The translations under genes were made by a program, and so were the position numbers. From contig CAZJOI010000001.1 of NCBI GenBank assembly GCA_964547585.1, forward strand, positions 54,037 to 114,855: 60,819 bases of DNA, given 5' to 3'. The notes under the pieces are model-generated. The model worked only from the letters and a program-made list of their open reading frames with translations. It did no database searches and was not told the origin of the DNA. This document shows positions 7,999 to 53,715 of this stretch, one piece after another; position 1 is the stretch's first letter; every line of letters starts with the position of its first letter. The DNA is from an uncultured Bdellovibrionales bacterium. Its GTDB lineage: Bacteria > Patescibacteriota > Minisyncoccia > Moranbacterales > UBA2206.

Positions 7999-8020
7999 AA
8001 GACAAAAAAGATAGCGGGGC

Positions 8021-21092: not shown

Positions 21093-21184
21093 AATATATT
21101 TCGTACCCTATCTATCCTGGCCATAATTTTCTATGCAATTCTTATGTATATTTTTTGAAAGACGTAGGGATTAAATTGTTTTTT

Positions 21185-26970: not shown

Positions 26971-27020
26971 ATGAAGAGGCTTTTTTTGTTTGCTTTGGAT
27001 CGGACATAATTTTGTGATAA
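26971..27020 (+). repeat. degenerate partial copy (P3) of the repeated module
   Basis: ATGAAGAGGCTTTTTTTGTTTGCTTTGGATCGGACATAATTTTGTGATAA aligns with the first third of P1, P2 and P4. The palindromic site and TTGACA are missing. Confidence 0.4.
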
Positions 27021-27096
27021 TTTTTTAAATGTCTACATTGAAAATGTAAAAGAATATTAATCGTATTACAATACAAAGGAATAAATATAAAAAATT

Positions 27097-30102: not shown

Positions 30103-30127
30103 AAAAGGGCAAATTTAAAAATATACC

Positions 30128-30310
30128 AAAAAAAGCTTTAAAATAGCTTTTTTTGTTTGCCTAGAATTAGGCATAGTTTTATCAAGATGCTTGAAATAAG
30201 CCATTTGTTGTCTTTTTGCTTTGACAAAATGGTCATTTGGGTGTATACTTACAAATCAGTCAATAATGACTGACAGTACCTAAAAAATCAAACAAAATGG
30301 AGGTGTCGCG
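30128..30310 (+). promoter_or_regulatory. repeated module copy P4
   Basis: AAAAAAAGC..GCTTTTTTT hairpin. GCCTAGAATTAGGC. ATGCTTGAAATAAGCCAT at 30187-30204. TTGACA(30221-30226), 17 nt, TATACT(30244-30249). UTR hairpin TCAGTC..GACTGA. GGAGGTG lies 5 nt before the ATG. Confidence 0.6.
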
Positions 30311-31685: not shown

Positions 31686-33425
31686 ATGTTTTGTATTGGA
31701 GATGCTGCCAATCCAGACTTAACCTTCTTGATATTTTCTAGCAATGTACCAAGTCTAATTTATTATTCCCATATACCTGCAATATTTGTTTCGCTATTTC
31801 TTGGTCTGTTTGTTTTTTTTAAAAAAAGAGATTTACTAATTAGTAAAGTCCTGCTTTCGCTTTCAATTATGAGTTCTGTTTTGGCTATGTTGGATCTAAT
31901 TATTTGGACTCAGTCGGACAGTAGAATTGTTGTTTTTTTGTGGGCACTTTGGTTTTTAGTTTTTGAATTGGTTTTTATTCTGGGTCTTTATTTCGCTTAT
32001 GTATTTTTTGATAAGAAGGACATATCTATTAAAACCAAAATCGTTTTGGGTCTGTTGTTATTGCCTACTTTTTTTATAGTTCCAACGAGCTACAATCTGT
32101 CTGGTATCGATCTTAGTACTTGCAATGCTTTTGAAAATTTATATTTTTCTAATTTTATATATTTAATATCTGCCTTTTTTGTTTTGTGGATGGTGATATT
32201 GTCCTTTTTGAGATACAGAAAGGCAGAAGAAGAATTTAAAAAACAAATACTTTTTGTTTCAATTGGTAGTTTTATTTTTCTTTCCATCCTTTCAATTACG
32301 TCTTATTTTGGAAGTGTAGAATATTTTTCTAATAATTCTATTCATAGCTTTGACATAGAGCAATATGGATTTTTTGGAATGCCGATTTTTATTGGTTTTC
32401 TTGCTTATATCATTGTTAAATACAAGGCTTTTAATATTAAACTTATCGGGGCACAGGCCTTGGTTGTTGCGCTAGTTATTTTGATTGGTTCACAGTTCTT
32501 CTTTATTCAAACTGATACTAACAGAATTTTGACTGCAATAACTTTGGCATTAGCGGGTGGTTTTGGAATATTTTTGATTCGTTCGATTAAGGCGGAAGCA
32601 CAAAGAAAAGAAGAATTGCAATTGATGTCTGATAAGCTGGCTCAATCAAATGATAAATTGCAAAAATTGGACAATGCCAAATCCGAATTTATTTCAATCG
32701 CTTCACATCAGTTGCGTACGCCTCTCACGGCCATCAAAGGCTTCATTTCTTTACTCAATGAGGGAGCCTATGGGAATCTGGATTCAAAGCAATCTGATGT
32801 TTTGAAAAAAGTCTATATCAGCAATGAAAGATTGATTGCCTTGGTGGAAGATTTATTGAATATTTCCCGCATTGAATCTGGCCGAATGGAATTTAAATTT
32901 GACTCGTGTCAACTTACGGATCTTTGTAGTGAACTGGTGGATACATTTACCTTCAAAGCCAAAGACGCCAATCTCTATTTGGATTTCAAGGCGCCAGAAA
33001 ATGCTTTGCCGGAAGTATTCGTAGACCGTGCTAAGGTCAGAGAAGTGCTTTCTAATTTGATTGATAATGCGATTAAATATACGCCTAAGGGAGGCGTGAG
33101 TGTGAGATTGGAAAGAATTTTTGCGGAAGATTCCAAAATCGAAAATGTTAACGAAAGAGGCTCGGTTAAGATTATTATTTCGGATACGGGAATTGGAGTT
33201 CCGGCTGAAGAAATTCCCTATCTTTTTTCCAAGTTTTCTCGTGGCAAAGATGTTAGTCGTCTCAATGTTAGCGGAACTGGACTGGGACTCTATGTGGGCA
33301 GAAGTATGATTGAAGCTAATGGCGGAAAAATCTGGCTTGAATCAGAAGGAGCTGGTAAAGGTTCACGTTTCATCATCGAGGTGCCAGTTGAACAAACACC
33401 CGAAAATCTCACCCGCTGGAGCTAG
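31686..33425 (+). CDS. sensor histidine kinase with a multi-pass membrane N-terminal domain
   Basis: SHQLRTPLTAIKG H-box. N box DNAIKYT. DTGIGV and GTGLGL boxes. No response regulator gene is adjacent. Confidence 0.85.
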   Translation: MFCIGDAANPDLTFLIFSSNVPSLIYYSHIPAIFVSLFLGLFVFFKKRDLLISKVLLSLSIMSSVLAMLDLIIWTQSDSRIVVFLWALWFLVFELVFILGLYFAYVFFDKKDISIKTKIVLGLLLLPTFFIVPTSYNLSGIDLSTCNAFENLYFSNFIYLISAFFVLWMVILSFLRYRKAEEEFKKQILFVSIGSFIFLSILSITSYFGSVEYFSNNSIHSFDIEQYGFFGMPIFIGFLAYIIVKYKAFNIKLIGAQALVVALVILIGSQFFFIQTDTNRILTAITLALAGGFGIFLIRSIKAEAQRKEELQLMSDKLAQSNDKLQKLDNAKSEFISIASHQLRTPLTAIKGFISLLNEGAYGNLDSKQSDVLKKVYISNERLIALVEDLLNISRIESGRMEFKFDSCQLTDLCSELVDTFTFKAKDANLYLDFKAPENALPEVFVDRAKVREVLSNLIDNAIKYTPKGGVSVRLERIFAEDSKIENVNERGSVKIIISDTGIGVPAEEIPYLFSKFSRGKDVSRLNVSGTGLGLYVGRSMIEANGGKIWLESEGAGKGSRFIIEVPVEQTPENLTRWS

Positions 33426-33450
33426 GAAAAATATAAATCTTTCAAAAAAC

Positions 33451-33477
33451 AAAAACCGCCTAGTGGCGGTTTTTTTA
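33451..33477 (+). terminator. rho-independent terminator
   Basis: AACCGCC-TAGT-GGCGGTT followed by TTTTTT. Confidence 0.7.
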
Positions 33478-33574
33478 GTTCTTTGATACTAGTCTTTATT
33501 TATGCTATATTTCTAGCATAAAAAGCGTAAATTTACCATCCGCTTGATCCCTGAGTATGGTAAATTAAAAAAAT

Positions 33575-34603
33575 ATGAAAAAGAATAAAATTATCAAACA
33601 GAACAATTTTATGGAGTTTTTGCTTTATACTACACCAAACGGAAAAGTGAAAGTAGAGATTTTCTTAAAAGATGAAAATATTTGGTTGACGCAGAAAAAA
33701 ATAGCGGAGCTTTTTGATGTGGAAATTAATACTGTGAATTATCATCTCAAAGAAATCTTTAAAAGTGCAGAATTAAGCGAAGATTCAGTTATTCGAAAAA
33801 TTCGAATAACTGCCAATGACGGAAAAAATTACGAAACTAATTTTTACAACCTCGATGCCATTATTTCTGTCGGTTATCGCGTAAATAGCGCGCAAGCAAC
33901 GCAGTTCCGTATTTGGGCAACCGAAAGATTAAAAGAATATATTATCAAGGGGTTCACGATGAATGACGAAAAGCTAAAAGACCCATATAATATTTTCGGT
34001 AAGGATTATTTTGAAGAACAATTGGCAAGGATCAGGGATATTCGTTCCAGTGAGCGGAGATTTTACCAAAAAATTACTGATATTTATGCTCAGTGCAGCA
34101 TTGATTATAACCCAAATGAAGAAATTACCAAACAATTTTTTGCTACTGTGCAAAATAAATTACATTTTGCAATTTCTGGGTTGACCGCTGCCGAGATTAT
34201 TCACAAAAGAATTGGAAGTACAAAACCCAATATGGGACTGACGAATTGGAAAAATTATCCCAAAGGAGAAATTCGAATTACCGATATGGCAATTGCTAAA
34301 AATTACTTGGATGAAAAGGAATTGGACGGACTCAATAGAATCGTGACGATGTATCTTGATTATGCTGAAATACAAGCACAAAGAGGAATAGCGATGCGGA
34401 TGAAGGATTGGGTGAAAAAATTGGATGCTTTTTTACGATTTAATGAAAGAAAAATTCTCAAAGATAACGGAAAAATATCGCATGAAGTCGCAGTTGCTCT
34501 AGCTGAGAAAGAATATAAAAAATATCGCAAAGTGCAAGATAAAAATTATATTTCAGACTTCGATCGGGAAGTTAAGAAGCTTTTGAGAAAGAATGAAAAA
34601 TAA
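33575..34603 (+). CDS. RhuM-family protein
   Basis: The N-terminal pattern V.V....E.VWL.Q..IA.LF......V..H...IF...EL and YNLD.IISVGYRVNS..ATQFR.WAT is characteristic of RhuM-like proteins, from memory. Confidence 0.7.
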   Translation: MKKNKIIKQNNFMEFLLYTTPNGKVKVEIFLKDENIWLTQKKIAELFDVEINTVNYHLKEIFKSAELSEDSVIRKIRITANDGKNYETNFYNLDAIISVGYRVNSAQATQFRIWATERLKEYIIKGFTMNDEKLKDPYNIFGKDYFEEQLARIRDIRSSERRFYQKITDIYAQCSIDYNPNEEITKQFFATVQNKLHFAISGLTAAEIIHKRIGSTKPNMGLTNWKNYPKGEIRITDMAIAKNYLDEKELDGLNRIVTMYLDYAEIQAQRGIAMRMKDWVKKLDAFLRFNERKILKDNGKISHEVAVALAEKEYKKYRKVQDKNYISDFDREVKKLLRKNEK

Positions 34604-34621
34604 TTTTGCTAATAAATTGTT

Positions 34622-35233
34622 ATGTCTGAAAACCTACTTTCATTATTGGATCAACTCAGGGCGATTGCTACTGGAGGTTTGACTTTTACTAAGAATGAAT
34701 ATGATATCGAAAGATATAGAAAACTAATGGATATTGTTGCCAAAAAATACTCCGATATTTTTAAAATACCACCAGAAGAAATCATAGAAAAATTTAAAAA
34801 AGAAACCGGATCCATTACACCCAAAGTAGGTGTGGATGTTGCCATCTTAAACGAAGATAATGAGGTACTTGTTTTGAAAAGGAGTGATGATGAAAATTGG
34901 TGTTTGCTAGGTGGTTGGATGGATATTGGAGAAACTCCACTTGAAACAGCTACAAGAGAAGCAAAAGAGGAGGCTGGAATAGAAATCGAACCAGTGGGTT
35001 ATATTGCAATAAACACAAAAGGACCAAATACTCATCCGAATTTAGTTTGTCATCAAATAAATATTCTGGTTGCATCAAAACCAATTAAAAAGGCGACAAA
35101 AATTAATTTGAGTCATGAACATTCTAAATATAGATGGATTAATCTGGACGAAAATATTAAATGGCACGCAGGACACGAACTTCTCGTGGGGCCAATTAAG
35201 AAATTTATGAAAAACGGAATATTTATTCCATAA
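34622..35233 (+). CDS. Nudix hydrolase with an N-terminal helical Nudix-associated domain
   Basis: Nudix box GGWMDIGETPLETATREAKEEAGI. Confidence 0.8.
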   Translation: MSENLLSLLDQLRAIATGGLTFTKNEYDIERYRKLMDIVAKKYSDIFKIPPEEIIEKFKKETGSITPKVGVDVAILNEDNEVLVLKRSDDENWCLLGGWMDIGETPLETATREAKEEAGIEIEPVGYIAINTKGPNTHPNLVCHQINILVASKPIKKATKINLSHEHSKYRWINLDENIKWHAGHELLVGPIKKFMKNGIFIP

Positions 35234-35276
35234 AAAATAAAAATATAAATTTTATAAAATTTTCAGATTAATTTTG

Positions 35277-35708
35277 ATGAACATGCAGAAAAAGAATAAA
35301 ACTAAGGCAGTAGTTATATCTGGGAGTGCTTCTCTAAGTGAGGAAATGAAAAAGTGGTTTTTTTATTGGCAAAAGAAAGGTTATCGAGTAATTGATTGGC
35401 CCGTTCCGATTAAAGCTAGAGAGTTTGGTAAAAAATGGCCAGTTATCTATAAAAAGTTTTATAATTCTTTGAAAAAAACAGATATACATTTTGTCGCCAA
35501 TGAGGATAAAAACGGAATCAAGGGTTATGTTGGTGCAGGAGTTTTTGCTGAGATTTCTTTTTCTGTAGGACTGAATTTAATAAGAAAGACCCCCATCAAG
35601 ATATTGTTATACAAAATGCCATCCAAAAAATTATTTTATTATAAGGATTTGAGTCTTTGGATTAAGATGGGATGGTTGAAAGTTTATTGCAAACAAGATG
35701 AATCTTAA
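35277..35708 (+). CDS. hypothetical protein
   Basis: 143-aa ORF. There is a faint resemblance to small Rossmann-like nucleoside-transferase folds (VVISGSAS), which I cannot support further. Confidence 0.35.
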   Translation: MNMQKKNKTKAVVISGSASLSEEMKKWFFYWQKKGYRVIDWPVPIKAREFGKKWPVIYKKFYNSLKKTDIHFVANEDKNGIKGYVGAGVFAEISFSVGLNLIRKTPIKILLYKMPSKKLFYYKDLSLWIKMGWLKVYCKQDES

Positions 35709-35744
35709 TAGAATAAAAATTTAATTAGTTTTTGGTATTTTTGT

Positions 35745-35773
35745 TTGACATTATATTTTTTTTGCGTTATTAT
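35745..35773 (+). promoter_or_regulatory. sigma70-type promoter driving element F
   Basis: TTGACA(35745-35750), 17 nt, TATTAT(35768-35773). Confidence 0.55.
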
Positions 35774-35783: not shown

Positions 35784-35866
35784 ACCCCCACACCAATTTT
35801 TATAATTTAAAAATTTTTGTAAGTGTGATATTGCGAAATATTATTTGTGGGAATTGGTGTGGGGGT
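35784..35866 (+). repeat. structured element family, copy F (stand-alone, promoter-driven)
   Basis: ACCCCCACACCAATT(35784-35798) pairs perfectly with AATTGGTGTGGGGGT(35852-35866). The interior contains ATATT-GCGA-AATAT. It is followed by TAAATTAATATTTTTT. Confidence 0.65.
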
Positions 35867-37943: not shown

Positions 37944-38088
37944 TATAAAAGGATAGAGATCGATCCTAGTTAAAGTCCCCAGTTTTATCGAGGGATACTC
38001 AACTAGCCAGAGAGAAATTGATTCGTCAGTTGGCGAATTAGACTGGCTTATAGAGAGGTCAGTTTTTTTATTTGAAATCAGGATTATT

Positions 38089-38243
38089 ATCCCAGCACCA
38101 ATTCCAGCAAGGATTAGATGAGGTGTAAAGATTTATTTGCGAATACGCCTAACGGCTTAGTTAATAAAAATATAAAAGTTTAGATAGCGAATTGGTGCGG
38201 GATGCTCATATTTGTAGCTCCTCGTGCCTCGGAGACAAATATG
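38089..38243 (+). repeat. structured element family, copy A (S10/L3 spacer)
   Basis: 5' arm ATCCCAGCACCAATTC(38089-38104). TTGCGAATACGCCTAACGGCTT. AAAGTTTAGATAGC. 3' arm GAATTGGTGCGGGAT(38189-38203). CATATTTGT(38207-38215) pairs with ACAAATATG(38235-38243), which includes the rplC ATG. Confidence 0.75.
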
Positions 38244-38816
38244 GCAAAAGCTATACTCGGAAAAAAAATAGGCATGACAACTATTTATAACGAAGATAAA
38301 GAAGCACTGAATGTGACTCTGGTTGAATGTTTTTCAAAAGTATCAATGCTTAGGACTGAAGAAAAAAATGGTTATTCAGCTGTTCAAATTGAAATACCAA
38401 AAACCAAGAAAAGAATATTTAAAAAAGAATTTAAAATAGAAAAAGCCGAAGAGGAAACTTTGAAGGCAGGTGATGACATCAGCATTGATGTTTTCGAAAT
38501 AGGTGAAAAAGTCAAAGTCAGCGGTATTACCAAGGCCAAGGGATTCCAAGGTGTAGTCAAAAGACATGGCTTTAAGGGATCTCCAAAAACTCATGGACAC
38601 AAGCATGATTTACGTGCTCCTGGTTCAATTGGTTCAGGCTTTCCAGAACATGTAACCAAAGGCAAGAGAATGGCTGGCAGAATGGGTGGAAAAAGAGCTA
38701 CATCAAAAAATGTCAAAATTGTTTTCATGGATAAGGAAAAAAACATAATCGGAGTAAAAGGTGCTGTTCCCGGAGTAGCCGGTCGAATAGTTGAAATTGT
38801 AAAAAGTAACCAATAA
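38241..38816 (+). CDS. rplC: 50S ribosomal protein L3
   Basis: MAKAILGKKIGMT is a typical L3 start. The in-frame upstream ATG at 38202 lies inside the repeat element. Confidence 0.93.
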   Translation: MAKAILGKKIGMTTIYNEDKEALNVTLVECFSKVSMLRTEEKNGYSAVQIEIPKTKKRIFKKEFKIEKAEEETLKAGDDISIDVFEIGEKVKVSGITKAKGFQGVVKRHGFKGSPKTHGHKHDLRAPGSIGSGFPEHVTKGKRMAGRMGGKRATSKNVKIVFMDKEKNIIGVKGAVPGVAGRIVEIVKSNQ

Positions 38817-38819
38817 TGC

Positions 38820-38992
38820 TCCCCGCACCAAATTCTAAGAGAGTGCGGAAATAGCAAAAAGTTAATCTGAAGAATACGCCTCGCCTCGGCGAAGCGGGCT
38901 AACGGCTTGATAATAAAAAATATAAAGTTTAGATAGCGAATTGGTGCGGGATGCTCATTTTTGTAGCCACTCGTACCTCGCGGACAAAAATG
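38820..38992 (+). repeat. structured element family, copy B (L3/L4 spacer)
   Basis: 5' arm TCCCCGCACCAAATTC(38820-38835). GAATACGCC-[GC-rich insert]-TAACGGCTT. AAAGTTTAGATAGC. 3' arm GAATTGGTGCGGGA(38938-38951). CATTTTTGT(38956-38964) pairs with ACAAAAATG(38984-38992). Confidence 0.75.
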
Positions 38993-39640
38993 GCAAAGAT
39001 ATCAGTCTACAACTTAAAAGGAGAAAAGAAAGAAGAACTGGAAGTAACAGACAAAGTTTTTGGTTTACCTGAAAATGATACGCTGTTACATCAAGTTTTT
39101 GTTTCTTTGATGGCGAATAAAAGACAGTCTATAGCTGATACAAAAAATAGAGGAGACCGAGCTGGATCTGGCATTAAACCTTGGAAACAAAAAGGAACTG
39201 GCCGAGCTCGCGTTGGATCATCCAGAACCCCAACTTGGAAAGGTGGAGGTGTGGCTTTTGGTCCAAAAAGCGAAAGAAATTACAAACAAAAAATCAACAA
39301 AAAGATGAATTCCAAAGCGATCACTTTGGCTCTCAGTGGAAAGTTTCGCGACGGAGAAATATTTGTATTGGAAAATCTTGATTTGAAAGAAAAAAAGACC
39401 AAAAGCATGTCAGCTGTTCTGAAAAGTTTGAAAATAAAAGGCAGCGTGCTGATGGGTTTTCATACTAAAGAAAAAGAGATGGTGCTCACTGCCCGAAATT
39501 TGAAAAAAGTTGATTGTGTTTTGTCAGAAAGTCTGAGTGTTTTGGATATCCTAAATCACAAAAATATTATTTTATCCAAAGAATCGGTAAAAAGCATAGA
39601 AAAGAAATACGGCAAAGAAAGCCTGAAGTCTAAAGCCTAA
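38990..39640 (+). CDS. rplD: 50S ribosomal protein L4
   Basis: [11 protein letters not shown].. and the [12 protein letters not shown] motif. Confidence 0.93.
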
Positions 39641-39996: not shown

Positions 39997-40087
39997 ATTA
40001 AAATAGTTCACAGTTATTAGTCAACAGTTCGCAGTAAATATAAAAAATATCTTAAAACCATTAACTGTTAACTGAGAACCAAAGCAA

Positions 40088-41345: not shown

Positions 41346-41921
41346 ATGAAAGTATCAGCCAAATTGAAAAATTTAAGAACCTCACCCAGAAAAGTAAGAT
41401 TAGTTGCTAATTTTATTAAAGGCTTGGATGTGGCTGAAGCACTCAATCAATTGGAAGTTCAGATAAAGAAAAGTAATCCAGTGATGAAGAAGCTTTTGGA
41501 AAGTGCCATTAGCAATGCTGAAAACAATTTTGGTTTGGATAAAGGCAATCTCTATGTTTATAGCGTTCAAGTTGGAGCTGGTGCTACTCTCAAAAGATGG
41601 ATGCCCAGAGCTTTCGGTAGAGCTTCAACAATTCTCAAAAGAACTTCGCAAATTGAAATAGTTTTGGAAGAAAGAGTTGAAGGTAAAGGGCGAAAAACCA
41701 AGGAAGAAATGGAAAAGGAAAAGCAAAAAAGAATGGAAGCCAGAAAGAAACAGGAAAAGGAAGCCAAGAAAGAACAGGAAGAAAAAGAAGAAACTTCAAA
41801 AAGTGAAGGTGAAATCGTAGCCAAAAATACAGACAAGATAAAAGAATCAGGAAAAGTAAAAAAGGGTGGCGAAACCAAGGGTGGTCTGGCCAGTCGAATA
41901 TTCAGAAGAAAGTCAATGTGA
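41346..41921 (+). CDS. rplV: 50S ribosomal protein L22 with a C-terminal extension of about 75 aa rich in Lys and Glu
   Basis: The L22 core is residues 1-115 (SPRKVRLVA..I.G). A low-complexity KEEMEKEKQKR.. tail follows. Confidence 0.9.
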   Translation: MKVSAKLKNLRTSPRKVRLVANFIKGLDVAEALNQLEVQIKKSNPVMKKLLESAISNAENNFGLDKGNLYVYSVQVGAGATLKRWMPRAFGRASTILKRTSQIEIVLEERVEGKGRKTKEEMEKEKQKRMEARKKQEKEAKKEQEEKEETSKSEGEIVAKNTDKIKESGKVKKGGETKGGLASRIFRRKSM

Positions 41922-41999
41922 TGCATAGCATCATCCTGAGGCCGCCAGCTGGCGGATCGAAGGATCTAATATATATAACTTTTTGATTTAAAAAACAGC

Positions 42000-42644
42000 A
42001 TGGGACATAAAGTTAACCCAACCGGACTCCGAACAGGAATAACAAGCACATGGAGATCCAGATGGTTTAGTAAAAAAGAATTCAGTGAAAACCTCAAGCA
42101 AGATGTAAATCTCCGTGAGGATATTATGAAGAAGTGGAAAACTTCTGCTATTGCTGATGTGGAAATCGAAAGATCAGCCTCAAAGGTAAAAATCATTATT
42201 AAAACAGCCAGACCGGGAGTTTTGATTGGACGAGGTGGTAGTGGAGTTGAAGATATCAACAAATATATCAAAAAGAAGTTTTTTGCTGGAAAGAAAGCTG
42301 AGCTCAATATTGAAATTCAGGAAATTAAGAATTTTATGGAAAATTCACAGTTGATTGCTCAAAATATTGCTGAACAATTGGAGAAAAGAATGCCTTTCAG
42401 AAGAGTAATCAAAAGTATGATCGACCAATCAGTCAAAGAAGGCATAACCAAGGGAATAAAAATTCAAGTTTCTGGCAGGTTGGGTGGAGCGGAAATGTCC
42501 AGATTGGAATGGGTTTCCAAGGGAACATTACCTTTACACACACTCCGAGCCAATATTGATTTTTCCCGAGCGACAGCCTATACGACCTATGGAACCATTG
42601 GTGTAAAAGTCTGGTTGTATAAAGGGGAAGTATTTGATAAATAG
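42000..42644 (+). CDS. rpsC: 30S ribosomal protein S3
   Basis: MGHKVNP.GLR.G and a KH-domain GRGGSG. Confidence 0.95.
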
Positions 42645-42713
42645 ATAGTTTGTAGTTTATAGTTAGTAGTTTGTAGAAAACTAAAAACTAAAAACCAAAA
42701 ACTAAAAACCATT
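42645..42713 (+). repeat. TAGTTTGTAG / CTAAAAAC intercistronic spacer motif (S3/L16)
   Basis: TAGTTTGTAG occurs twice, then four CTAAAAAC-like units. The two halves are near-complementary. Confidence 0.6.
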
Positions 42714-43136
42714 ATGTTGATGCCCAGAAAAGTAAAATTTAGAAAGCCACACCGCGGAGGCAAAATAAAAGGAAAAGCCAACCGAGGTAATTTGGTTAGC
42801 TTCGGAAGTTTTGGACTCAAATCTATTGAAACCAATTTAGTTTCAGCTAGACAGATTGAAGCTGCTAGACGCGCTATGACCAGATATACGCAAAGAGGTG
42901 GAAAGATTTGGATCAGAATATTTCCCGATAAAGCTATGACGAAAAAAGGCGACGAAACTCCAATGGGTAAGGGAAAAGGAACGCCAGATCATTTCGTTTC
43001 AGTAGTTAAGGCTGGAAAAGTATTATTTGAAATGGATGGAGTGAAAAGAGAAACAGCCAAAGAAGCAATGCGACTAGCTGCGCATAAGTTAAATGTTAAA
43101 ACTAAATTCGTAGAAAAAGGGGAAGAAGTAATATAA
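42714..43136 (+). CDS. rplP: 50S ribosomal protein L16
   Basis: [14 protein letters not shown] and the L16 pattern. Confidence 0.95.
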
Positions 43137-43140
43137 TTTT

Positions 43141-43329
43141 ATGATGAAAATCAAAGAACTCAGAGAAAAAAATAAAGAAGAGCTGAAGAAGCTTTTAACT
43201 GAAAAAGAAGAGATTGTCAGAAAGCTTAGATTTGAAATTGCTTCAAAACAAATCAAGAATGTTAAGGATTTGAAGAATAATAGGAAAGAGATTGCTCGTA
43301 TTTTGACCTTAATCAATGAATCAAAATAA
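43141..43329 (+). CDS. rpmC: 50S ribosomal protein L29
   Basis: Size and position. ELREK...EL...L.E... Confidence 0.88.
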   Translation: MMKIKELREKNKEELKKLLTEKEEIVRKLRFEIASKQIKNVKDLKNNRKEIARILTLINESK

Positions 43330-43566
43330 ATGGAAAAGGAAAAGATAATTATCAAGAAAAAAGGCACAGTCGTGAGTGATAAAATGAGCAAGACCATTGT
43401 TGTGGCCGTTGATATTTTTAAGACTCACCCAAAATACAAGAAGAAGTATAAATCAACCAAAAAATACAAGGCTCACGATGAAGAGAATAAATATAAGACA
43501 GGAGATGTGGTTGAAATTATTCCGTGCCGACCCTACAGTAAATCTAAGAGGTATAAAGTTATATAA
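43330..43566 (+). CDS. rpsQ: 30S ribosomal protein S17
   Basis: G.VVSDKM.KT.VV.V......HP.Y.K.....KKY.AHDE.N. Confidence 0.92.
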   Translation: MEKEKIIIKKKGTVVSDKMSKTIVVAVDIFKTHPKYKKKYKSTKKYKAHDEENKYKTGDVVEIIPCRPYSKSKRYKVI

Positions 43567-43613
43567 AATGGTTGGTGGTTTGTAGAAAAAAATAAGAACT
43601 AAGAACTGATAAA
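43567..43613 (+). repeat. GGTTTGTAG .. AAGAACTAAGAACTGATAAA spacer (S17/L14)
   Basis: It shares GGTTTGTAGAAAAAA and AAGAACTGATAAAATG with the L24/L5 spacer. Confidence 0.55.
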
Positions 43614-43979
43614 ATGATACAAGCAGAAACAAAATTAAATGTAGCCGATAATACTGGAGCAAAAATGATAAAATGCTTTAAGATTTTGGGTGGAACTAGA
43701 AGGCGTTATGCTGGTATTGGGGATATTGTTGTCGCTTCAGTTAAAACCGCTGCTCCCAGAGGTATGGTTAAAAAAGGAGATATTGTTAAAGCGGTAATTG
43801 TCAGACAGAGAAAAGAATTGCGCCGAAAAGACGGTTCCTATATTCGTTTTGATGAAAATGCAGCCGTGATTTTGGATGGTAAGGATCCCAAGGGAACCCG
43901 AATTTTTGGACCAATAGCAAGAGAGATAAGAGAGAAAGGTTACAGTAAGATAATTTCACTGGCTCCGGAAGTATTATAA
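43614..43979 (+). CDS. rplN: 50S ribosomal protein L14
   Basis: MIQ..T.L.VADN.GAK...C. Confidence 0.95.
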
Positions 43980-43999
43980 ATAATAATTCGAGAAAAGAA

Positions 44000-44311
44000 A
44001 TGTCAAAAATTAAGAAAAATGATCAAGTCAAGATAATATCCGGAAAAGATAAGGGAAAGACAGGTAAGGTTCTTCGCGTTTTTCCAACCGAGGAAAAAAT
44101 TTTGGTGGAAGGTTTAAATTTACGTAAAAAACACATGAAACCCAGAAAAGAAGGTGAAAAAGGACAACGAATAGAAATTCCCGGAAAGCTTAATATTTCG
44201 AATATAATGTTGGTTTGCCCAAAATGCGGTAAAGATACGCGAGTTGGGTATAAAATAGTTGAAAAAAATAAGTTTAGATTTTGTAAAAAGTGCCAAGCAG
44301 AAATAAATTAA
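44000..44311 (+). CDS. rplX: 50S ribosomal protein L24
   Basis: KKND.V.IISGKDKGK.GKV and a KOW motif. The C-terminus carries a CPKC..C.KC zinc-ribbon-like segment. Confidence 0.9.
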   Translation: MSKIKKNDQVKIISGKDKGKTGKVLRVFPTEEKILVEGLNLRKKHMKPRKEGEKGQRIEIPGKLNISNIMLVCPKCGKDTRVGYKIVEKNKFRFCKKCQAEIN

Positions 44312-44385
44312 ATAGTTGGTAGTTTGTAGTCGGCGGTTTGTAGAAAAAACCAAAAACTAAAAACTAAGAACTAAAAACTGATAAA
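44312..44385 (+). repeat. TAGTTTGTAG / CGGTTTGTAG .. CTAAAAAC spacer (L24/L5)
   Basis: Two GTTTGTAG units, then CCAAAAACTAAAAACTAAGAACTAAAAACTGATAAA. Confidence 0.6.
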
Positions 44386-44928
44386 ATGAGTGTTAAAGAT
44401 AAATATGATAAAGAAACAGTTACGGAACTAAAAAAGATTTTTGGTTTCAAAAATAATCTGCAAACTCCCCGAATTGGCAGAGTGGTTATTAATGTTGGAA
44501 CTGGAAAATTTTTAAAAGATGCTAATACCGTCAAAGAAATATTTGATTCCATGCAGCTTATTGCTGGACAAAGACCCGTTCAAACTAAAGCCAAAAAGTC
44601 TATTGCTGGATTCAAAATCAGAGAAGGTTTGGAAGTTGGTGTGAAGGTTACGCTCAGAGGAAAGAGAAAATGGGATTTCATTGAAAGATTAGTGGCGACT
44701 GCCATTCCGCGTATAAAAGATTTTCAAGGCATCAAAGAATCTGCAGTTGATACTAATGGAAATTTCAATTTAGGAATCAAGGAACATGTTATTTTTCCAG
44801 AAATTCTCCCCGAAAATGTAAAAACAATTTTCAGTTTACAAGTAAATATTGTTACTACTGCCAAGAATCACAAAGAAGGATTAGAATTATTTAAGGCTCT
44901 GAAATTCCCAATTAAGACGAAGGAATAA
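44386..44928 (+). CDS. rplE: 50S ribosomal protein L5
   Basis: L5 pattern (P.I.KVV.N.G.G, FR.G..VG..VTLRG..M..F..RL). Confidence 0.95.
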   Translation: MSVKDKYDKETVTELKKIFGFKNNLQTPRIGRVVINVGTGKFLKDANTVKEIFDSMQLIAGQRPVQTKAKKSIAGFKIREGLEVGVKVTLRGKRKWDFIERLVATAIPRIKDFQGIKESAVDTNGNFNLGIKEHVIFPEILPENVKTIFSLQVNIVTTAKNHKEGLELFKALKFPIKTKE

Positions 44929-44972
44929 AAAATAATTTAGACTAAAAAATATTTAGAATAATTATAAAGTTT

Positions 44973-45158
44973 ATGGCAAAGTTATCAGTTATCGCAAGAT
45001 CACAAAAGAAACCCAAGTTTTCATCTCGAATCGTGAAGAGATGTTGGCGCTGTGGAAGAAAACATGGATATATGAGGCAATTTGATATTTGCAGAATTTG
45101 CTTTAGAGAATTGGCTAGTACGAATCAAATTCCCGGAGTTAAAAAATCAAGTTGGTAA
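44973..45158 (+). CDS. rpsN: 30S ribosomal protein S14 type Z (zinc-binding)
   Basis: 61 aa with CWRCGR..CRIC. Confidence 0.93.
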
Positions 45159-45180
45159 GAATTAATTACAAATAAAATTA

Positions 45181-45207
45181 AAGGTTAAATTAGAGATTTA
45201 TAAAACT
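45181..45207 (+). repeat. leader shared by rpsH and rplF (copy 1)
   Basis: AAGGTTAAATTAGAGATTTATAAAACT precedes ATGTCA. Compare 45622-45647. Confidence 0.6.
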
Positions 45208-45612
45208 ATGTCAGATCCAATAGCAGAAATGCTAACTAAAATAAGAAATGCTCAGAGAGTAGGCAAAAAAGATGTGATTCTTAGTGCATCTAAGCTTAAA
45301 CTTTCTATTGGTAAAATCTTGGAAAAAGAAGGTTTTGTTGAGAGTGTCCTTAAAGAAAGAATTGGTAATTTTGAAAAAATCAAGATTGTTTTAAAATATC
45401 ATACAATTTCGAGAACCAAAAAAATTCCAGCTATTAATGACATAAAGAGAGTGAGCAAGGAAGGACAGAGAATCTATGTTGGAAGCAAAGAAATAAAGAA
45501 AGTAAAAAACAGTTATGGTATTGGTGTTATTTCTACCTCCAAGGGTGTTATGACTAATGCTGAAGCCAGAAAGAATGGTTTGGGAGGAGAATATATTTGT
45601 GAAGTTTGGTAG
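45208..45612 (+). CDS. rpsH: 30S ribosomal protein S8
   Basis: M.DPIA.MLT.IRNA. Confidence 0.95.
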   Translation: MSDPIAEMLTKIRNAQRVGKKDVILSASKLKLSIGKILEKEGFVESVLKERIGNFEKIKIVLKYHTISRTKKIPAINDIKRVSKEGQRIYVGSKEIKKVKNSYGIGVISTSKGVMTNAEARKNGLGGEYICEVW

Positions 45613-45621
45613 AATATAAAT

Positions 45622-45647
45622 AAGGTAAATTAGAGATTTATAATATT
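45622..45647 (+). repeat. leader shared by rpsH and rplF (copy 2)
   Basis: AAGGTAAATTAGAGATTTATAATATT precedes ATGTCA. Confidence 0.6.
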
Positions 45648-46187
45648 ATGTCAAGAATAGGAAAAAAAGTAATAATTATTCCTCAAGGAGTTGAGGTTAA
45701 ATATCAGAATAAGACCGTAAGCGTTAAGGGTCCAAAAGGAACTTTGGATTTGGTTATTTATGATGAATTGGATTTGGAAGTTAAGGAAAATGAAATTATA
45801 GTAAATAAAATTAGAAACTCAAAAAAAGCGCCAGCGCTTTGGGGTCTAACTCGAGCATTGATAAGCAATCTTATCACCGGAGTAACAGTTGGTTATGAAA
45901 AGAAATTGGAACTTCAGGGAGTTGGATTCCGTATGGCTGTTCAAGGTAAAAAAATCAATTTGGCTCTGGGATTTTCTCATCCAGTTGTGGTTGATGTCCC
46001 AGAAGGAATTGAAGCTAAGATTGCTGAAGCAAATATTTTGATAATTTCCGGAATTGATAAGCAAAAAATAGGACAATTTGCTGCCGACATCAGATCACTC
46101 AAAGAAGCTGAACCGTACAAAGGCAAAGGATTCAGATATGTCGGTGAATATGTCAGAAGAAAAGCTGGCAAAAAAGCCGCCAAATAA
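45648..46187 (+). CDS. rplF: 50S ribosomal protein L6
   Basis: MSRIGKK.I.IP.GV.V and the PYKGKG.RY motif. Confidence 0.95.
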   Translation: MSRIGKKVIIIPQGVEVKYQNKTVSVKGPKGTLDLVIYDELDLEVKENEIIVNKIRNSKKAPALWGLTRALISNLITGVTVGYEKKLELQGVGFRMAVQGKKINLALGFSHPVVVDVPEGIEAKIAEANILIISGIDKQKIGQFAADIRSLKEAEPYKGKGFRYVGEYVRRKAGKKAAK

Positions 46188-46209
46188 TTAGAAATAATCT
46201 ATCATTTTT

Positions 46210-46557
46210 ATGAAAACATTAAGCAGAAATAAAACAAGACTGCAAAGAACAAAAAGAATCAGAGCTAAGGTCAGAGGAACAAACGAAGTTCCAAGGCTTT
46301 CTGTTTTCAAAAGCCTGAAAGGAGTTTGGGCTCAGGTTATTGATGATGAAAACGGAAAAACTCTGGCTGCGGCTAGTTCAAAAACAGCCAAAGCCAAGGA
46401 TGATTTGGAGGGCGCCAAAAAGGTTGGTATTCTTTTGGCCAAGAAATGTTTGGAAAAGAAAATCGAGAAAGTTGTTTTTGATAGAGCTGGATATAAATAT
46501 CATGGGAAAGTTAAATCCCTAGCCGAAGGTGCAAGAGAAGGGGGACTCAAATTTTAG
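46210..46557 (+). CDS. rplR: 50S ribosomal protein L18
   Basis: R.R.R.K..GT...PRL.VF.S.K...AQ.IDD and YHG.VKALAE.ARE.GL.F. Confidence 0.93.
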   Translation: MKTLSRNKTRLQRTKRIRAKVRGTNEVPRLSVFKSLKGVWAQVIDDENGKTLAAASSKTAKAKDDLEGAKKVGILLAKKCLEKKIEKVVFDRAGYKYHGKVKSLAEGAREGGLKF

Positions 46558-46579
46558 GTTATAATAAATATCAATGGCG

Positions 46580-46738
46580 ACCCCGCAAAAAATTCCAGTA
46601 ACATTTTATTTTAATATTTAGAATCATTTGCGAATACGCCTGACGGCTTAATAAATAAATAACAAAGAGTTTAAATAGCGAATTTTCGCGGGGTGCTCAT
46701 AATTGTAGCTACTCGCGAGGCGCTCGAAGACAATTATG
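46580..46738 (+). repeat. structured element family, copy C (L18/S5 spacer)
   Basis: 5' arm ACCCCGCAAAAAATTC(46580-46595). TTGCGAATACGCCTGACGGCTT. GAGTTTAAATAGC. 3' arm GAATTTTCGCGGGGT(46680-46694). CATAATTGT(46698-46706) pairs with ACAATTATG(46730-46738). Confidence 0.75.
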
Positions 46739-47236
46739 GCAAGAGATAAAAAATTTAGAGCTAAAAGAGAAAAACCTGAATTTGAACAGAAGCTCTTGGA
46801 TTTGGCGAGAGTTGCCCGCGTAGTTAAGGGCGGAAGACGTTTTCGATTTAGAGCAACTTTGGTTATCGGTAATAGAAAAGGCAAGGTTGGTGTTGGAGTT
46901 GGCAAAGGTGCTGATGTTTCTGATGCCATCAAAAAAGCCTATGACGATGCTAACAAAAATATGATTTCAGTTTTGTTTAATAAAAACACAATTTTTCATG
47001 ACATTCATCATAAAAAAGGTAGTGCAAAAATTATTCTAAAGCCTGCTAAGGAAGGAAGAGGAATTATTGCCGGAGGTGCAATTCGAGCTGTGATTGATTT
47101 GTCCGGAATAAGAGATATCGTAGCCAAATCACTTGGGACTTCAAATAAATTAAATGTTGCCAGAGCAACAGTTGAAGCCCTTTCCCAATTGGCTTATTCC
47201 AAAACAAGAAAAGAAAGACTGGAAGCTAAAAACTAA
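46736..47236 (+). CDS. rpsE: 30S ribosomal protein S5
   Basis: VVKGGRRF.F.A.VV.G...G.VG.G.GKA. Confidence 0.95.
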   Translation: MARDKKFRAKREKPEFEQKLLDLARVARVVKGGRRFRFRATLVIGNRKGKVGVGVGKGADVSDAIKKAYDDANKNMISVLFNKNTIFHDIHHKKGSAKIILKPAKEGRGIIAGGAIRAVIDLSGIRDIVAKSLGTSNKLNVARATVEALSQLAYSKTRKERLEAKN

Positions 47237-47250
47237 AAATTTATTAATTT

Positions 47251-47709
47251 ATGCAAATCAATACACTAAAACTTAAGAACAGCAGAAAGAAAAAGAAACA
47301 ACAGATTGGACGTGGCGGAAAAAAAGGAACTTACTGCGGTAAGGGAAATAAAGGACAAAAGGCCCGATCGGGGGCCCACGTGAACCCTCTTTTCGAAGGC
47401 GGAAGGTCGACTTTAATCGACCATTTGAAAAAAGCCAAAGGTTTCAAATCTCTCAGCTCAAAAACAGTAGTTGTCAGAATTGAAAGACTGGAAAAGAAAT
47501 TTAAAGATGGTTCGGAAATCAGCAAGGAAACTTTGGTGAAATCAGGAATTATCAATAGCTTAGAATCAAAAAGAAAAGTAAAAATTCTTGGCAAAACTGA
47601 TCTTAAGCACAAATTCAAAGTTAACAAGGATATTTTTGTCAGTCTTTCTTCTAAAACTTCAATCGAAAAAGCTGGTGGAGAAATTGAAATTGAAAAAAAG
47701 AGTAAGTAG
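47251..47709 (+). CDS. rplO: 50S ribosomal protein L15
   Basis: The GRGG.KG.T.G.G.KGQK.RSG pattern. It starts 14 nt after rpsE with no rpmD in between. Confidence 0.93.
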   Translation: MQINTLKLKNSRKKKKQQIGRGGKKGTYCGKGNKGQKARSGAHVNPLFEGGRSTLIDHLKKAKGFKSLSSKTVVVRIERLEKKFKDGSEISKETLVKSGIINSLESKRKVKILGKTDLKHKFKVNKDIFVSLSSKTSIEKAGGEIEIEKKSK

Positions 47710-47714
47710 ATGAA

Positions 47715-47740
47715 AAAGGGCGCCTTGAGTGCCCTTTGTT
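47715..47740 (+). terminator. hairpin after rplO (weak terminator)
   Basis: AAAGGGC-N9-GCCCTTT followed by GTTATT. Confidence 0.35.
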
Positions 47741-47763
47741 ATTATGATAAACTATTCTACAGC

Positions 47764-47881
47764 TATCCCGCGATCAATTCCAGTATAGTTTTATAATAAT
47801 GTAAAATTCCGACTGCGAATTCGCCTGCCTACCGGCAGGCAGGCCTACGGTTTAAGTTTCCAAAAATTATAAAGTTTAGAT
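47764..47881 (+). repeat. structured element family, copy D (L15/secY spacer), lacking the 3' arm and start-codon helix
   Basis: TATCCCGCGATCAATTCCAG. CTGCGAATTCGCC-[GCCTGCC-TACC-GGCAGGC]-..CTACGGTTT. ATAAAGTTTAGAT is followed immediately by the secY ATG. Confidence 0.65.
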
Positions 47882-49150: not shown

Positions 49151-49248
49151 CCAACTTGCTTCGCAAGAATTTTTAATTTTTATTTTTTTTAATTTTATAA
49201 ATAAATCTAAATTTTAAAATGTTTAAAAATTAGATATTAAAAATTATT

Positions 49249-51157: not shown

Positions 51158-51670
51158 ATGGAAAAGTCAATATATACCGACAATAAGCCTTATATAAGCC
51201 TTGTCCCGCACCATTCAAATTCTTTTGGGTCAGCGAATAGCGAAAAGACCCAAAAGAATAAAAAAGATGAATTGGTGCTGGGGCATGTTTTGGCAATAGA
51301 TTTTGGAAAATCCAAGGTTGGTTTGGCTATGGCGGATATGGAGACTAAAATAGCTTTTGTCTATGGAATAATCCCAAATGACAAGAATATTTTTGATAAA
51401 CTAGCGGAAATAATCACCAAGGAAGGGATTAAGATGATCATAATTGGTGTTCCGGACTATGTGCATAAAGCCAAAGAAGAATATGCTGGCATATCGCTTG
51501 GCAATAGGCTAAAAGAAAAAATGGGCATTGAGGTGGAATATCAAAATGAAATGTTTACGACTAAAATGGCTCAAGAAAATATCAAAGAGCGGGATGGCAA
51601 AAATATTGCCAAAAAGGACGACCAAGAAGCAGCCAAAATAATTTTGCAGGACTGGCTCGATAAAGCCTAG
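51158..51670 (+). CDS. ruvX: Holliday-junction-resolvase-like nuclease RuvX/YqgF (start uncertain)
   Basis: The YqgF core starts near VLAIDFGKSKVGLAMAD. The first 40 or so codons coincide with repeat element R. In-frame alternative starts are TTG 51272, GTG 51275 and TTG 51290. Confidence 0.7.
   Translation: MEKSIYTDNKPYISLVPHHSNSFGSANSEKTQKNKKDELVLGHVLAIDFGKSKVGLAMADMETKIAFVYGIIPNDKNIFDKLAEIITKEGIKMIIIGVPDYVHKAKEEYAGISLGNRLKEKMGIEVEYQNEMFTTKMAQENIKERDGKNIAKKDDQEAAKIILQDWLDKA
51205..51283 (+). repeat. structured element family, short copy R inside the annotated ruvX 5' end
   Basis: CCCGCACCATTC(51205-51216) and GAATTGGTGCTGGGG(51269-51283) flank a perfect 10-bp hairpin, CTTTTGGGTC/GACCCAAAAG, whose loop is AGCGAATAGCGAAAA. 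Confidence 0.55.
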
Positions 51671-52531: not shown

Positions 52532-52540
52532 GTTAAGTCG

Positions 52541-52698
52541 GACCCCGCACCAATTCCAAAAAATGTTTTCTGCCAGAAGTTGGTTTTGTGCGCGTGGTCG
52601 CCTAACGGCTTAAAGTTAAAAAATAAAAAGTCTCACGAGCGAATTGGTGCAGGGGTTCTCATTTTTGTTCCTGCTCGCTTAGCTCACAGACAAAAATG
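52541..52698 (+). repeat. structured element family, copy E (upstream of galT)
   Basis: 5' arm GACCCCGCACCAATTCC(52541-52557). ..GTCGCCTAACGGCTT. ..GAGC. 3' arm GAATTGGTGCAGGGG(52641-52655). CATTTTTGT(52660-52668) pairs with ACAAAAATG(52690-52698). Confidence 0.7.
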
Positions 52699-53715
52699 GA
52701 AAAAATAAAAAAACAAAAAATATCACAATTGCGGCAAGATTTGGTGACGGGTGATTGGGTTGTGATTGCAACTGGGAGAGCTAAAAGACCAGAAGATTTT
52801 GTCTTGCATAAAGAAGAGCAGATTGAGGTTACTATTAACAATGAAAATAAAACCTGCGTTTTTTGTACGCCAGAGGAAACAGGACAAGAAAAAGATATTT
52901 TGATTTATAAAAAAGCTGATGAAGACTGGAGTCTTCGAGTTTTCCCAAATAAATATCCGGCTTTCACTCGAGGTAGGGTAGTCAAGCATTTTGAAGAAGG
53001 CCCATATTTTGGGATGGATGGCGTTGGCTATCATGAGGTTATTGTGACTCGAGATCACAATAGACAAATTGCCAATCTGGATGTGATGGAGGTAATGGAA
53101 ATAATCGATGCCTATCAAAGTCGTTATATTGACTTGATGAACAAAAAAAGTGTCAATTTTATTGAAATTTTTCATAATCATGGCAAAGAGGCTGGAGCTT
53201 CTCTTTCTCATCCGCATTCTCAACTAGCGGCTATTCCTGTGATTTCACCCTACATTAAAGGCGAATTGCAAGGAGCGGAGACATACTATAAAAATAACAA
53301 GGAGTGCGTTTTTTGTGTTATGAATGAATGGGAATGTGAAAGCCAGAAAAGAGTTATTTTTGAAAATAAAGAATTTGTGGCGTATTGTCCTTTTTCATCG
53401 CGTGCAGCTTTTGAAGTTTGGATTGTTCCTAAAAAACATCAGCCTTACTTCGAAAGAATAACGGACAAACAAAAAAAAGGATTGGCAGAAGCTTTGCAAA
53501 ATTCAATAAATAAAATCTACAAGGCCTTGGGAAATCCGCCTTACAATTTTTATCTGCACACTGCGCCTTGCGATGGAAAAGATTATGCACATTATCATTG
53601 GCACATCGAGATTATTCCACATACCTCTACTTGGGCTGGGTTTGAACTTTCAACTGGGGTTGAAATATCCACCATTGAACCGGAAGTTGCCGCAGAATTT
53701 TTAAGAAATATTTAA
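52696..53715 (+). CDS. galT: galactose-1-phosphate uridylyltransferase family (HIT superfamily) enzyme
   Basis: CVFC zinc site, FPNKYPA and SLSHPHSQL (HxHxQ). Confidence 0.8.
   Translation: MEKIKKQKISQLRQDLVTGDWVVIATGRAKRPEDFVLHKEEQIEVTINNENKTCVFCTPEETGQEKDILIYKKADEDWSLRVFPNKYPAFTRGRVVKHFEEGPYFGMDGVGYHEVIVTRDHNRQIANLDVMEVMEIIDAYQSRYIDLMNKKSVNFIEIFHNHGKEAGASLSHPHSQLAAIPVISPYIKGELQGAETYYKNNKECVFCVMNEWECESQKRVIFENKEFVAYCPFSSRAAFEVWIVPKKHQPYFERITDKQKKGLAEALQNSINKIYKALGNPPYNFYLHTAPCDGKDYAHYHWHIEIIPHTSTWAGFELSTGVEISTIEPEVAAEFLRNI

Follow-up and report, generated by a model that had tools for sequence, protein, structure and literature searches.

A repeated start-codon hairpin element, gained and lost between ribosomal-protein genes of Moranbacteria

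Why are four junctions of an otherwise compact ribosomal-protein operon held apart by long spacers that resemble one another? The question arises in a 60,819-nucleotide (nt) stretch of contig CAZJOI010000001.1 (assembly GCA_964547585.1, positions 54,037 to 114,855 of the forward strand), here called the window. An earlier annotation made from the letters alone, the sequence-only reading, had singled out the S10/L3, L3/L4, L18/S5 and L15/secY spacers, and the measured lengths of 297, 173, 178 and 172 nt agree with it, each remaining rpsJ-to-secY junction being 0–91 nt long. These spacers harbor copies of one element, some 160 nt long or, where an optional GC hairpin is present, about 178 nt, built from a long-range helix, P1, followed by a hairpin, P2, that contains the start codon of the next gene. 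The favored explanation, to which we assign a probability of roughly one half, combines a mobile element with a switch in messenger RNA (mRNA) at that start codon.

Seven copies are packed into 17 kb of the window, all on the + strand, comprising five long copies (A, B, C, E and the relic D) and two short relatives (F and G); they measure 80–180 nt and contain no conserved open reading frame (ORF). Copy A (38088..38246; covariance model 147.7 bits, supported by its fold) is a full cassette at the rpsJ (S10)/rplC (L3) junction, with the P1 5′ arm at 38089-38104, the P1 3′ arm at 38189-38203 and P2 at 38204-38245, the rplC start codon (38241-38243) lying inside the P2 3′ strand. Copy B (38818..38995; 134.6 bits and fold) fills the rplC/rplD (L4) junction, with P1 arms at 38820-38835 and 38938-38952, a GC hairpin at 38877-38898, and P2 at 38953-38994 enclosing the rplD ATG (38990-38992). 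Copy C (46578..46741; 154.5 bits and fold), at the rplR (L18)/rpsE (S5) junction, represents a subfamily with arms CCCCGCAAAAAATTC / GAATTTTCGCGGGG and P2 loop CTCGCGAGGCGCTC that is also found at secE/nusG in L007 (three-digit L numbers denote related loci); the rpsE ATG lies at 46736-46738. Copy E (52540..52701; 143.8 bits and fold) is a full cassette before a GalT/HIT-like gene, whose ATG (52696-52698) again lies inside P2. Copy D (47762..47881; 27.6 bits over model positions 14-103), at the rplO (L15)/secY junction, is shortened: the 5′ arm, interior and optional hairpin are kept, the 3′ arm and P2 are deleted, and its end, AAAGTTTAGAT, abuts the secY ATG at 47882. Copies F (35784..35866; CCCCCACACCAATT / AATTGGTGTGGGGG) and G (51205..51283), each supported by its fold, consist of arms only. 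Copy F starts a few nt past a strong promoter-like site, TTGACA-17-TATTAT (35745-35773), and the 3′ arm of copy G overlaps the probable ruvX start (about 51275-51280), a position kept at ruvX in L122.

Several parts of the sequence-only reading can be judged from this inventory. Its ordered blocks and optional GC hairpin (38877-38898 in copy B, and again in copy D) are present, although its 3′ arm in every long spacer is not, copy D having none; the recurrence outside the cluster that it described holds for copy E and fails for F and G, which lack the internal blocks. Protein identities agree with its names for L4, S5, SecY, the GalT/HIT-like protein, and RuvX after copy G. The copies are no assembly artefact: they recur in independent JGI, ENA, NCBI and Logan assemblies. 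The repetition is far above chance: with as many as 3 mismatches tolerated, the 3′-arm pattern AGCGAATTGGTGCGGG is found 6 times where 0.32 would be expected (none of 100 shuffles attains 6), and AAAGTTTAGATAGCGAATT occurs 3 times against 0.03 expected. ARAGORN finds only two transfer RNAs (tRNAs) in the window, both at its end, and the element is not tRNA-like.

P1 is a helix of 14–17 base pairs (bp) (CCCGCACCAAATTC / GAATTGGTGCGGG) enclosing an interior of about 85 nt. The arm sequence of the family is CCCCGCACCAATT, and the arms, spanning 14–18 bp, are complementary in all full and short copies. Minimum-free-energy (MFE) folds give the long-range helix in copies A, B, C, E, F and G, with a fold z-score of -3.7 for copy A on the + strand. 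The compensated arm variants quoted earlier are correct, the pairing of copy C being imperfect by one mismatch or bulge. P2 begins one base after the P1 3′ arm and in copy A consists of GCUCAUAUUUGU, a loop and ACAAAUAUGGC; this hairpin had gone unnoticed, and the unit is accordingly larger than the 150 nt or so first proposed. Its 3′ strand, ACAAAAAUGGC, is made of the downstream start codon plus the first two bases of codon 2, thereby placing the start codons of rplC, rplD, rpsE and the galT-like gene within P2, and in the default fold of P1 plus P2 the AUG is completely paired. P2 is absent wherever the P1 3′ arm is absent. The idea that P2 is a general start-site feature merely targeted by the element was rejected, as P2 was never found without that arm.

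Within the interior, AGCGAA, GCCUAACGGCUU and a CCA after the 5′ arm are invariant and unpaired, while about 40 nt vary freely. A scan of all column pairs yields no convincing helix beyond P1, P2 and a 3-bp GCC/GGC hairpin. No copy matches Rfam at the gathering score; at E<=5 no riboswitch, ribosomal-protein-leader or ribozyme family appears on any copy, and copies A–D are free of overlaps of any kind. The chance-level overlaps are eukaryotic microRNA models on copy F (20–25 bits) and tmRNA_permuted on the 3′ end of copy E (21.8 bits, gathering score 47), so the earlier statement that no named family is recognizable stands. P1 and P2 are well supported as structures.

Covariation was measured on a model-fitted alignment of 23 copies. 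Paired cells make up 94% of this alignment, compared with 35–48% in slid-partner controls, and 15 of 33 pairs have changed on both sides, in 54 cells; 0 of 500 shuffles match the observed values. P1 covaries across the 23 copies, bearing out the earlier proposal of selection on a long-range helix, and the upper stem of P2 occurs as CUCC/GGAG, CUUC/GAAG, CUGC/GCAG and CUA/UAG. Judged from the alignment, the structure of P1 and P2 is under selection, with P2 providing the stronger case. In six comparisons between same-junction copies of different species, 19 of the 34 changed stem pairs are compensated doubles, with unpaired columns differing by 14–42%.

The pairing of P2 follows the reading frame of the gene behind it. 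In three copies, at rpsC (L209), mreB (L090) and an rplN relic (L121), the native ATG lies 5 nt farther downstream, and the P2-internal AUG is substituted by AUC, CCG and AUC, respectively; the opposite strand is altered to match in L209 (GAU) and L090 (CGA), preserving the hairpin. In the galT copies, whose second codon is GAA, the base of P2 pairs UC with GA, compared with GC with GC elsewhere. The replacement of the AUG with matching changes, together with this adaptation to codon 2, ties P2 to the mRNA, and the start-codon hairpin is the strongest argument for action in mRNA. Folding energies from -45 to +6 are -11 to -16 kcal/mol for the four cassette genes and -3.9 +/- 3.4 kcal/mol for 53 other window genes, start regions in this genome being otherwise open. 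With the start region so strongly folded and the AUG paired, initiation should be blocked by default. Genes of this lineage mostly lack Shine-Dalgarno sequences.

Two observations concern start codons more broadly. Public gene calls (P0001, P0003, L215) start L3, L4 and L24 at the GGGATGCTCAT ATG within the cassette (window 38202-38240 and 38951-38989), adding 13 spurious residues (MLIFVA...) and giving 204 rather than 191 amino acids for L3, 229 rather than 216 for L4, and 116 rather than 103 for L24; the practical effect is that gene callers wrongly extend these three proteins. A leader peptide from the same ATG was considered and rejected, the ATG being in frame only in copies A and B and missing in several others. 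Elsewhere in the window, the radical-SAM activase gene after nrdD has its start codon (8058) in a different, stronger hairpin at 8020-8060 (-19.5 kcal/mol; CCTAATGAAAATTTAGG/CCTAAATTTTCATTATG).

Presence of the element varies among congeneric species and even among 99%-identical strains, in agreement with the earlier proposal of either a structured RNA module or a mobile structured element. L039 is 98–99% identical to window 41547-50484, and carries a 179-nt cassette at the L14/L24 junction where the window has a 17-nt spacer, with an L24 start of ATGGCA versus ATGTCA. The cassette also occurs in L215 (GCA_029567105.1); the window lacks it, and so do no fewer than six further strain-level contigs of about 99% identity. 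The L3/L4 junction is a cassette-free 2–14 nt in L208, L211 and L213, where L4 starts with ATGACA or ATGACG, as against ATGGCA in the window; with the cassette, rplD ATGACA and rplX ATGTCA become ATGGCA. Other junctions are filled in some species only, namely L22/S3 in L209 and L5/S14 in L213 and L140, while copy A has an orthologue at the S10/L3 junction of L122 and copy E has one in L013. Copy F is missing in L089, which is 99.5% identical to the window, the comparison of F with this empty site not being clean for a target duplication. Upstream of copy F, at 33377-35737, L089 diverges abruptly and only rearranged 76–85% patches are left, so that the RhuM-family/NUDIX-like region (33.5–35.7 kb) is strain-variable.

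Old copies decay. The L15/secY copy has degenerated differently in three species, retaining both arms in L122, which identifies copy D as a truncated relic, and only the 3′ arm plus P2 in L213. A relic also lies at S17/L14 in L121, and the S10/L3 junction of L211 probably holds another. In L122 the tuf/S10 spacer contains a short element with the same arms, which recurs in decayed form in L121; a clean 4-bp TTCA duplication surrounds it where the window, L089 and L208 have a single TTCA. On this evidence the arms probably began as terminal inverted repeats, most likely those of a transposon-type element, and the earlier preference for a structured RNA module or mobile structured element over a simple transposase-bound inverted repeat needs refining, a transposon-type origin of the arms being likely. 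No TA duplications were found, across 2.4 Mb of fetched loci no two arms bracket a stretch long enough for a transposase, no transposase, integrase or Y1-transposase domain occurs among the window ORFs scanned, and no transposase gene was found next to any copy. The element is very probably mobile, or at the least gained and lost.

Ahead of copy A, the S10-L3 spacer contains in its first half a separate conserved structured leader (37944-38072; CTAGTTAAAGTC..GATACTCAACTAGCCAG..). It ends with a terminator-like hairpin and T-run (38040-38072), has no Rfam match, resembles an rpsJ/rplC attenuator, and is kept in L122, L208, L211, L213 and L121, with or without the cassette.

Relatives were found by a pattern scan of metagenomes, by covariance models, and in contigs fetched through homologues of proteins L3 and L14. 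The metagenome scan gave 10 true loci among the matches listed, together with a conserved enterobacterial gene matched by chance; a first exact-pattern scan of genome contigs and an exact-pattern scan of viral contigs returned no match. A first covariance model, built from 12 copies, recovers 18 full copies in the window and scan loci. At E<=1e-8, the window and 12 loci contain 23 copies, with more copies and relics in other strains and species, and a second model built from the 23 found no additional members when run on 33 loci. About 25 copies are known in related Moranbacteria, all co-oriented with the following gene. The nearest named genomes with copies are Candidatus Moranbacteria/Moraniibacteriota (Parcubacteria group), the two closest being mislabelled 'Bdellovibrionales', and about 16 other Moranbacteria clusters carry no copy. 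The element is confined to a Moranbacteria clade. At the start of contig L143 (L143:1-118), from a more distant Patescibacteria metagenome-assembled genome with 48% L5 identity, a weak model match (E about 0.005-0.02) precedes a gene with an rplB-like N-terminus and has GCGGGGTGCTCA, a P2-like hairpin and ...TTGGCA|TG, so that the family may reach beyond the genus.

Each full copy points along the next gene and ends at its start. The genes concerned are rplC, rplD, rpsE and the galT-like gene in the window; rplX and rpsE in L039; secE, nusG and rplK consecutively in L007; nusG in L038; rplK in L073; groEL in L066; murA and mreB in L090; a galT-like gene in L013; a gene for a 93-aa protein in L005; rpsN in L213 and L140; and rpsC in L209. 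Subfamilies are common to non-orthologous loci of different genomes. Nearly all window genes lie on one strand, so the orientation bias inside the window is itself uninformative.

A second, mutually exclusive fold is predicted within the cassette. Two invariant motifs of the P1 3′ arm, AGCG and GCGGG, have their complement in the P2 loop, which is near-invariant (CUCGC..CGCU); in copy A (+ strand, 38186..38228) AGCG/GCGGG (38186-38201) faces the loop UCCUCGUGCC (38219-38228). This complementarity amounts to 81%, compared with 36–54% in slid controls. Deleting the 5′ arm in silico shifts the MFE structure to the alternative helix in most copies, and the probability that the AUG is unpaired rises from 0.00 to a mean of 0.52, or to a mean of 0.29 when the terminal loop is shuffled. 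For 14 of the 18 copies, which are not independent, the native sequence exceeds the loop-shuffled control (p=0.001, one-sided Wilcoxon test, n=18). An RNA switch is plausible on these predictions.

In the favored explanation, the element is a non-autonomous cassette derived from a miniature inverted-repeat transposable element (MITE) that resides in transcribed spacers, co-oriented with the next gene, and would work in mRNA. In the closed state P1 and P2 would both be formed, hiding the AUG. With no P1 5′ arm available, its 3′ partner would pair instead with the P2 loop, opening the P2 stem and exposing the AUG; P1 could be opened by cleavage, by a protein, or in transcripts that start inside the element. 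The cassette would in this way bring a self-contained, switchable translation start. Such a portable start site would explain the presence of copies inside essential ribosomal-protein operons, and the arm–loop pairing would explain conservation of the P2 loop. The element may be tolerated, or useful, through supplying a start site.

Several points weigh against this explanation. Concerning the switch, we infer co-transcription and folding in vivo. The alternative helix shows no covariation, both of its sides being conserved, and opening of P2 is not predicted in 4 of 18 copies, among them L039b, which stays closed. The upstream stop codon lies 4–34 nt before P1, and no more than two copies have the helix within reach of a ribosome that is terminating; translational coupling is therefore doubtful as a general trigger. 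G-U and A-C mismatches are nearly equal (14 versus 21) and both strands fold equally well, so that wobble pairs carry no strand-specific RNA signal and assigning a strand by mismatch counts is uninformative. Much of the covariation falls between subfamilies, leaving fewer independent events than the cells counted. Gene conversion among copies could imitate compensation at a locus, and it is likely: intragenome copies are more alike than orthologues, and P2 of the S10/L3 copy in L122 is almost identical to P2 of copy B.

Concerning mobility, individual copies are dispensable, decay having taken different courses in different species (D, L121:9061, L213:19629). Direct repeats flank none of about 20 full cassettes, and the arm-adjacent bases belong to the helix. 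The missing duplication and the position of P2 outside the inverted repeats make ordinary MITE cut-and-paste inadequate for the whole unit. Single-nucleotide polymorphisms are concentrated around the polymorphic L14/L24 junction, no more than about 100 nt from it, and homologous recombination, not a fresh insertion, may have carried this allele. A more novel variant is less likely than not: a portable initiation switch would take the place of the native junction, start codon and initial base of codon 2 included, would hide or expose the AUG through two mutually exclusive RNA folds, and would spread other than by cut-and-paste.

Among the rival explanations, a purely selfish palindromic MITE would dispense with any RNA role: the arms would be bound by a transposase, P2 would be a DNA hairpin used in transposition, and orientation and position would follow from how the element inserts, such as a single-strand insertion coupled to the direction of replication in a genome where nearly all genes run one way. 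The short relative with its 4-bp target duplication, the polymorphic and decaying copies, the one-strand gene layout that leaves the window's orientation bias uninformative, and stems that are almost purely Watson–Crick, with G-U not above A-C and equal folding of both strands, all accord with such DNA. It would have to account, however, for P2 pairs that take in host coding bases +4 and +5 and are adapted to the gene (GA/UC in galT copies), for removal of the P2 AUG, with a compensating change, exactly when it is out of frame, for the abutment of all of the approximately 25 copies on a start codon, and for compensated double changes in stems at orthologous junctions. The scanned window ORFs and the surroundings of the copies contain no transposase, and full copies have no target duplication. 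Selfish DNA as the whole explanation is improbable.

A host cis-regulatory leader, either a riboswitch or a protein operator, would coordinate the translation of housekeeping genes, with P1 as sensor, P2 as platform, and spread as a secondary matter. In its favor, unpaired motifs are invariant (AGCGAA, GCCUAACGGCUU and the CCA after the 5′ arm), the AUG is sequestered in P2 with an alternative pairing predicted, and 9 of the 14 genes that follow copies encode ribosomal proteins, NusG, SecE or GroEL among the matches listed in a pattern scan blind to gene type. Yet the downstream genes are mixed (galT-like, murA, mreB and the gene for the 93-aa protein), the distribution is patchy from strain to strain and within the genus, no copy occurs in about 16 Moranbacteria clusters, relics decay, some 40 nt of the interior vary freely, and Rfam has no match. 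A host leader of this kind is unlikely.

A signal for RNA processing or stability would have P1, or stacked P1/P2, cut by a double-strand-specific RNase, dividing the polycistronic mRNA and leaving on the downstream message a protective or activating 5′ hairpin, as at phage T7 intercistronic sites and in Neisseria Correia elements. P1 is indeed an intercistronic helix of 14–17 bp with conserved bulges, copy F lies at the extreme 5′ end of a predicted transcript, and Correia elements are bound and cleaved by RNase III, according to passages of PMC2649163 and PMC10969869. Processing alone leaves the conserved P2 loop and its complementarity to the arm unexplained; as the sole function it has a low probability, and it is compatible with the favored explanation rather than exclusive of it.

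A mobile promoter cassette, with an outward promoter in the AT-rich linker (GGCTTAGTT, 17 nt, TTTAAAT) and transcripts starting in the 3′ arm and so without the 5′ arm, is very improbable. In its favor, the GGCTTA-to-TTTAAAT spacing is almost constant, terminator-like hairpins lie 15–25 nt upstream of A, D and the L090 murA copy, and a transcript without the 5′ arm is predicted in the open state. Against it, a sigma-70 scan accepts no site inside the window copies; A2 or T6, the key positions, is missing from the -10-like hexamers, and the G from half of the -35-like ones; the hairpin preceding copy A is part of the attenuator-like S10-L3 leader present also in cassette-free genomes; and P1 covariation would go unexplained.

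The region has other repeats and features. A second family of intergenic hairpins (39997-40087, 42645-42713, 43567-43613, 44312-44385 and 56037-56074) occupies the L23/L2, S3/L16, S17/L14 and L24/L5 junctions of the same operon; its arms consist of periodic units of about 7 nt (5′ arm TAGTTTG..., 3′ arm ...CTAAAAAC), with fold z-scores of -2.4 to -4.1 for four members and -1.4 for the fifth. A 50–100 nt repeat, 70–83% identical, precedes four unrelated genes (21174-21273, 23282-23381, 26979-27030 and 30120-30219); it has a small GC hairpin followed by a promoter-like TTGCTT...CATAAT, and may be a shared terminator–promoter module. At 60240-60387, two 96%-identical copies of a 71-nt unit, 77 nt apart, stand directly before tRNA-Ala (60388) and tRNA-Ile (60577). 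Past the 3′ end of the window, L201, which overlaps that end, has a diversity-generating retroelement after murD (L201:5232-8551), composed of an Lcl_C-domain target gene, bAvd and a reverse transcriptase.

If the portable-switch variant is true, a mobile element would be rewiring how translation is controlled for essential genes of ribosomal proteins, secretion and chaperones. A real two-state fold would show how polar damage can be avoided when a mobile element enters the most constrained operons that a minimal genome has, and might even add a layer of translational control. At about 160 nt, the cassette is also a compact test case for the study of RNA switches in unculturable organisms.

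An integron attC site, in which R''/R' core sites (RYYYAAC ... GTTRRRY) close an imperfect hairpin at cassette 3′ ends and an integrase is present, was rejected: the sole RYYYAAC-like string (GCCTAAC) lies in the interior loop and has no GTTRRRY partner, and the scanned window ORFs include no integrase. REP/BIME sequences, palindromes of 20–40 nt that carry a conserved 5′ tetranucleotide and go with RAYT transposases, were likewise rejected, the unit here being 110–180 nt with arms about 85 nt apart, and the scanned window ORFs including no Y1-transposase. A riboswitch-like regulator would have a sensor domain and a platform with mutually exclusive pairings; here the alternative helix is predicted in 14 of 18 copies and shows no covariation. 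Stable vertical conservation at orthologous genes, a further trait of such regulators, is absent. With the autoregulatory leaders L4/S10, S8/spc and L1/L11 it shares a structured RNA at the start of ribosomal-protein cistrons, but those leaders are operon-specific mimics of ribosomal RNA sites, whereas here one family without an Rfam match precedes many unrelated genes. Attenuators and erm leaders conceal or release a start site by changing between two mutually exclusive sets of pairings, 1:2/3:4 and 2:3. The cassette has four segments in the same order, with predicted exclusive pairings and the start codon in the last, a likeness of logic only; it differs in having no conserved leader peptide, in the distance of about 100 nt between segments 1 and 2, and in being repeated and mobile.

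Full-text literature searches returned no account of such an element, none for Patescibacteria, and no co-transcribed repeat in which every copy is gene-oriented with the start codon in a covarying hairpin. Of the traits of a MITE, the element has terminal inverted repeats, small size, non-coding sequence, multiple copies and presence/absence polymorphism; it does not have insertion in either orientation and independent of genes, all of the approximately 25 full copies being co-oriented and ending at a start codon. The known interspersed, structured, co-transcribed repeats include Correia, ERIC, BOX and RUP. Correia and ERIC elements affect the expression of neighboring genes through folded RNA, as described in parts of PMC2649163 and PMC10969869, and so far as those parts go, they resemble the present element in their length of about 100–160 nt, in terminal inverted repeats that form a long hairpin, in many transcribed intergenic copies, and in differences of presence between strains. 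They insert in either orientation, with a TA duplication and no tie to start codons, whereas the full copies here are co-oriented, have no TA duplication and carry a start-codon hairpin outside the inverted repeats; the sequences are unrelated. Chunjie, in the portion of PMC10969869 that describes it, is likewise a small non-autonomous element tolerated within an operon; it has direct repeats at its ends, whereas here the cassette replaces the whole intercistronic junction. No start-codon hairpin is mentioned for Chunjie in PMC10969869, and the terms 'start codon' and 'orientation' are absent from its text. The element, oriented and coupled to the start codon, is a new variant among the bacterial co-transcribed, MITE-like intergenic repeats.

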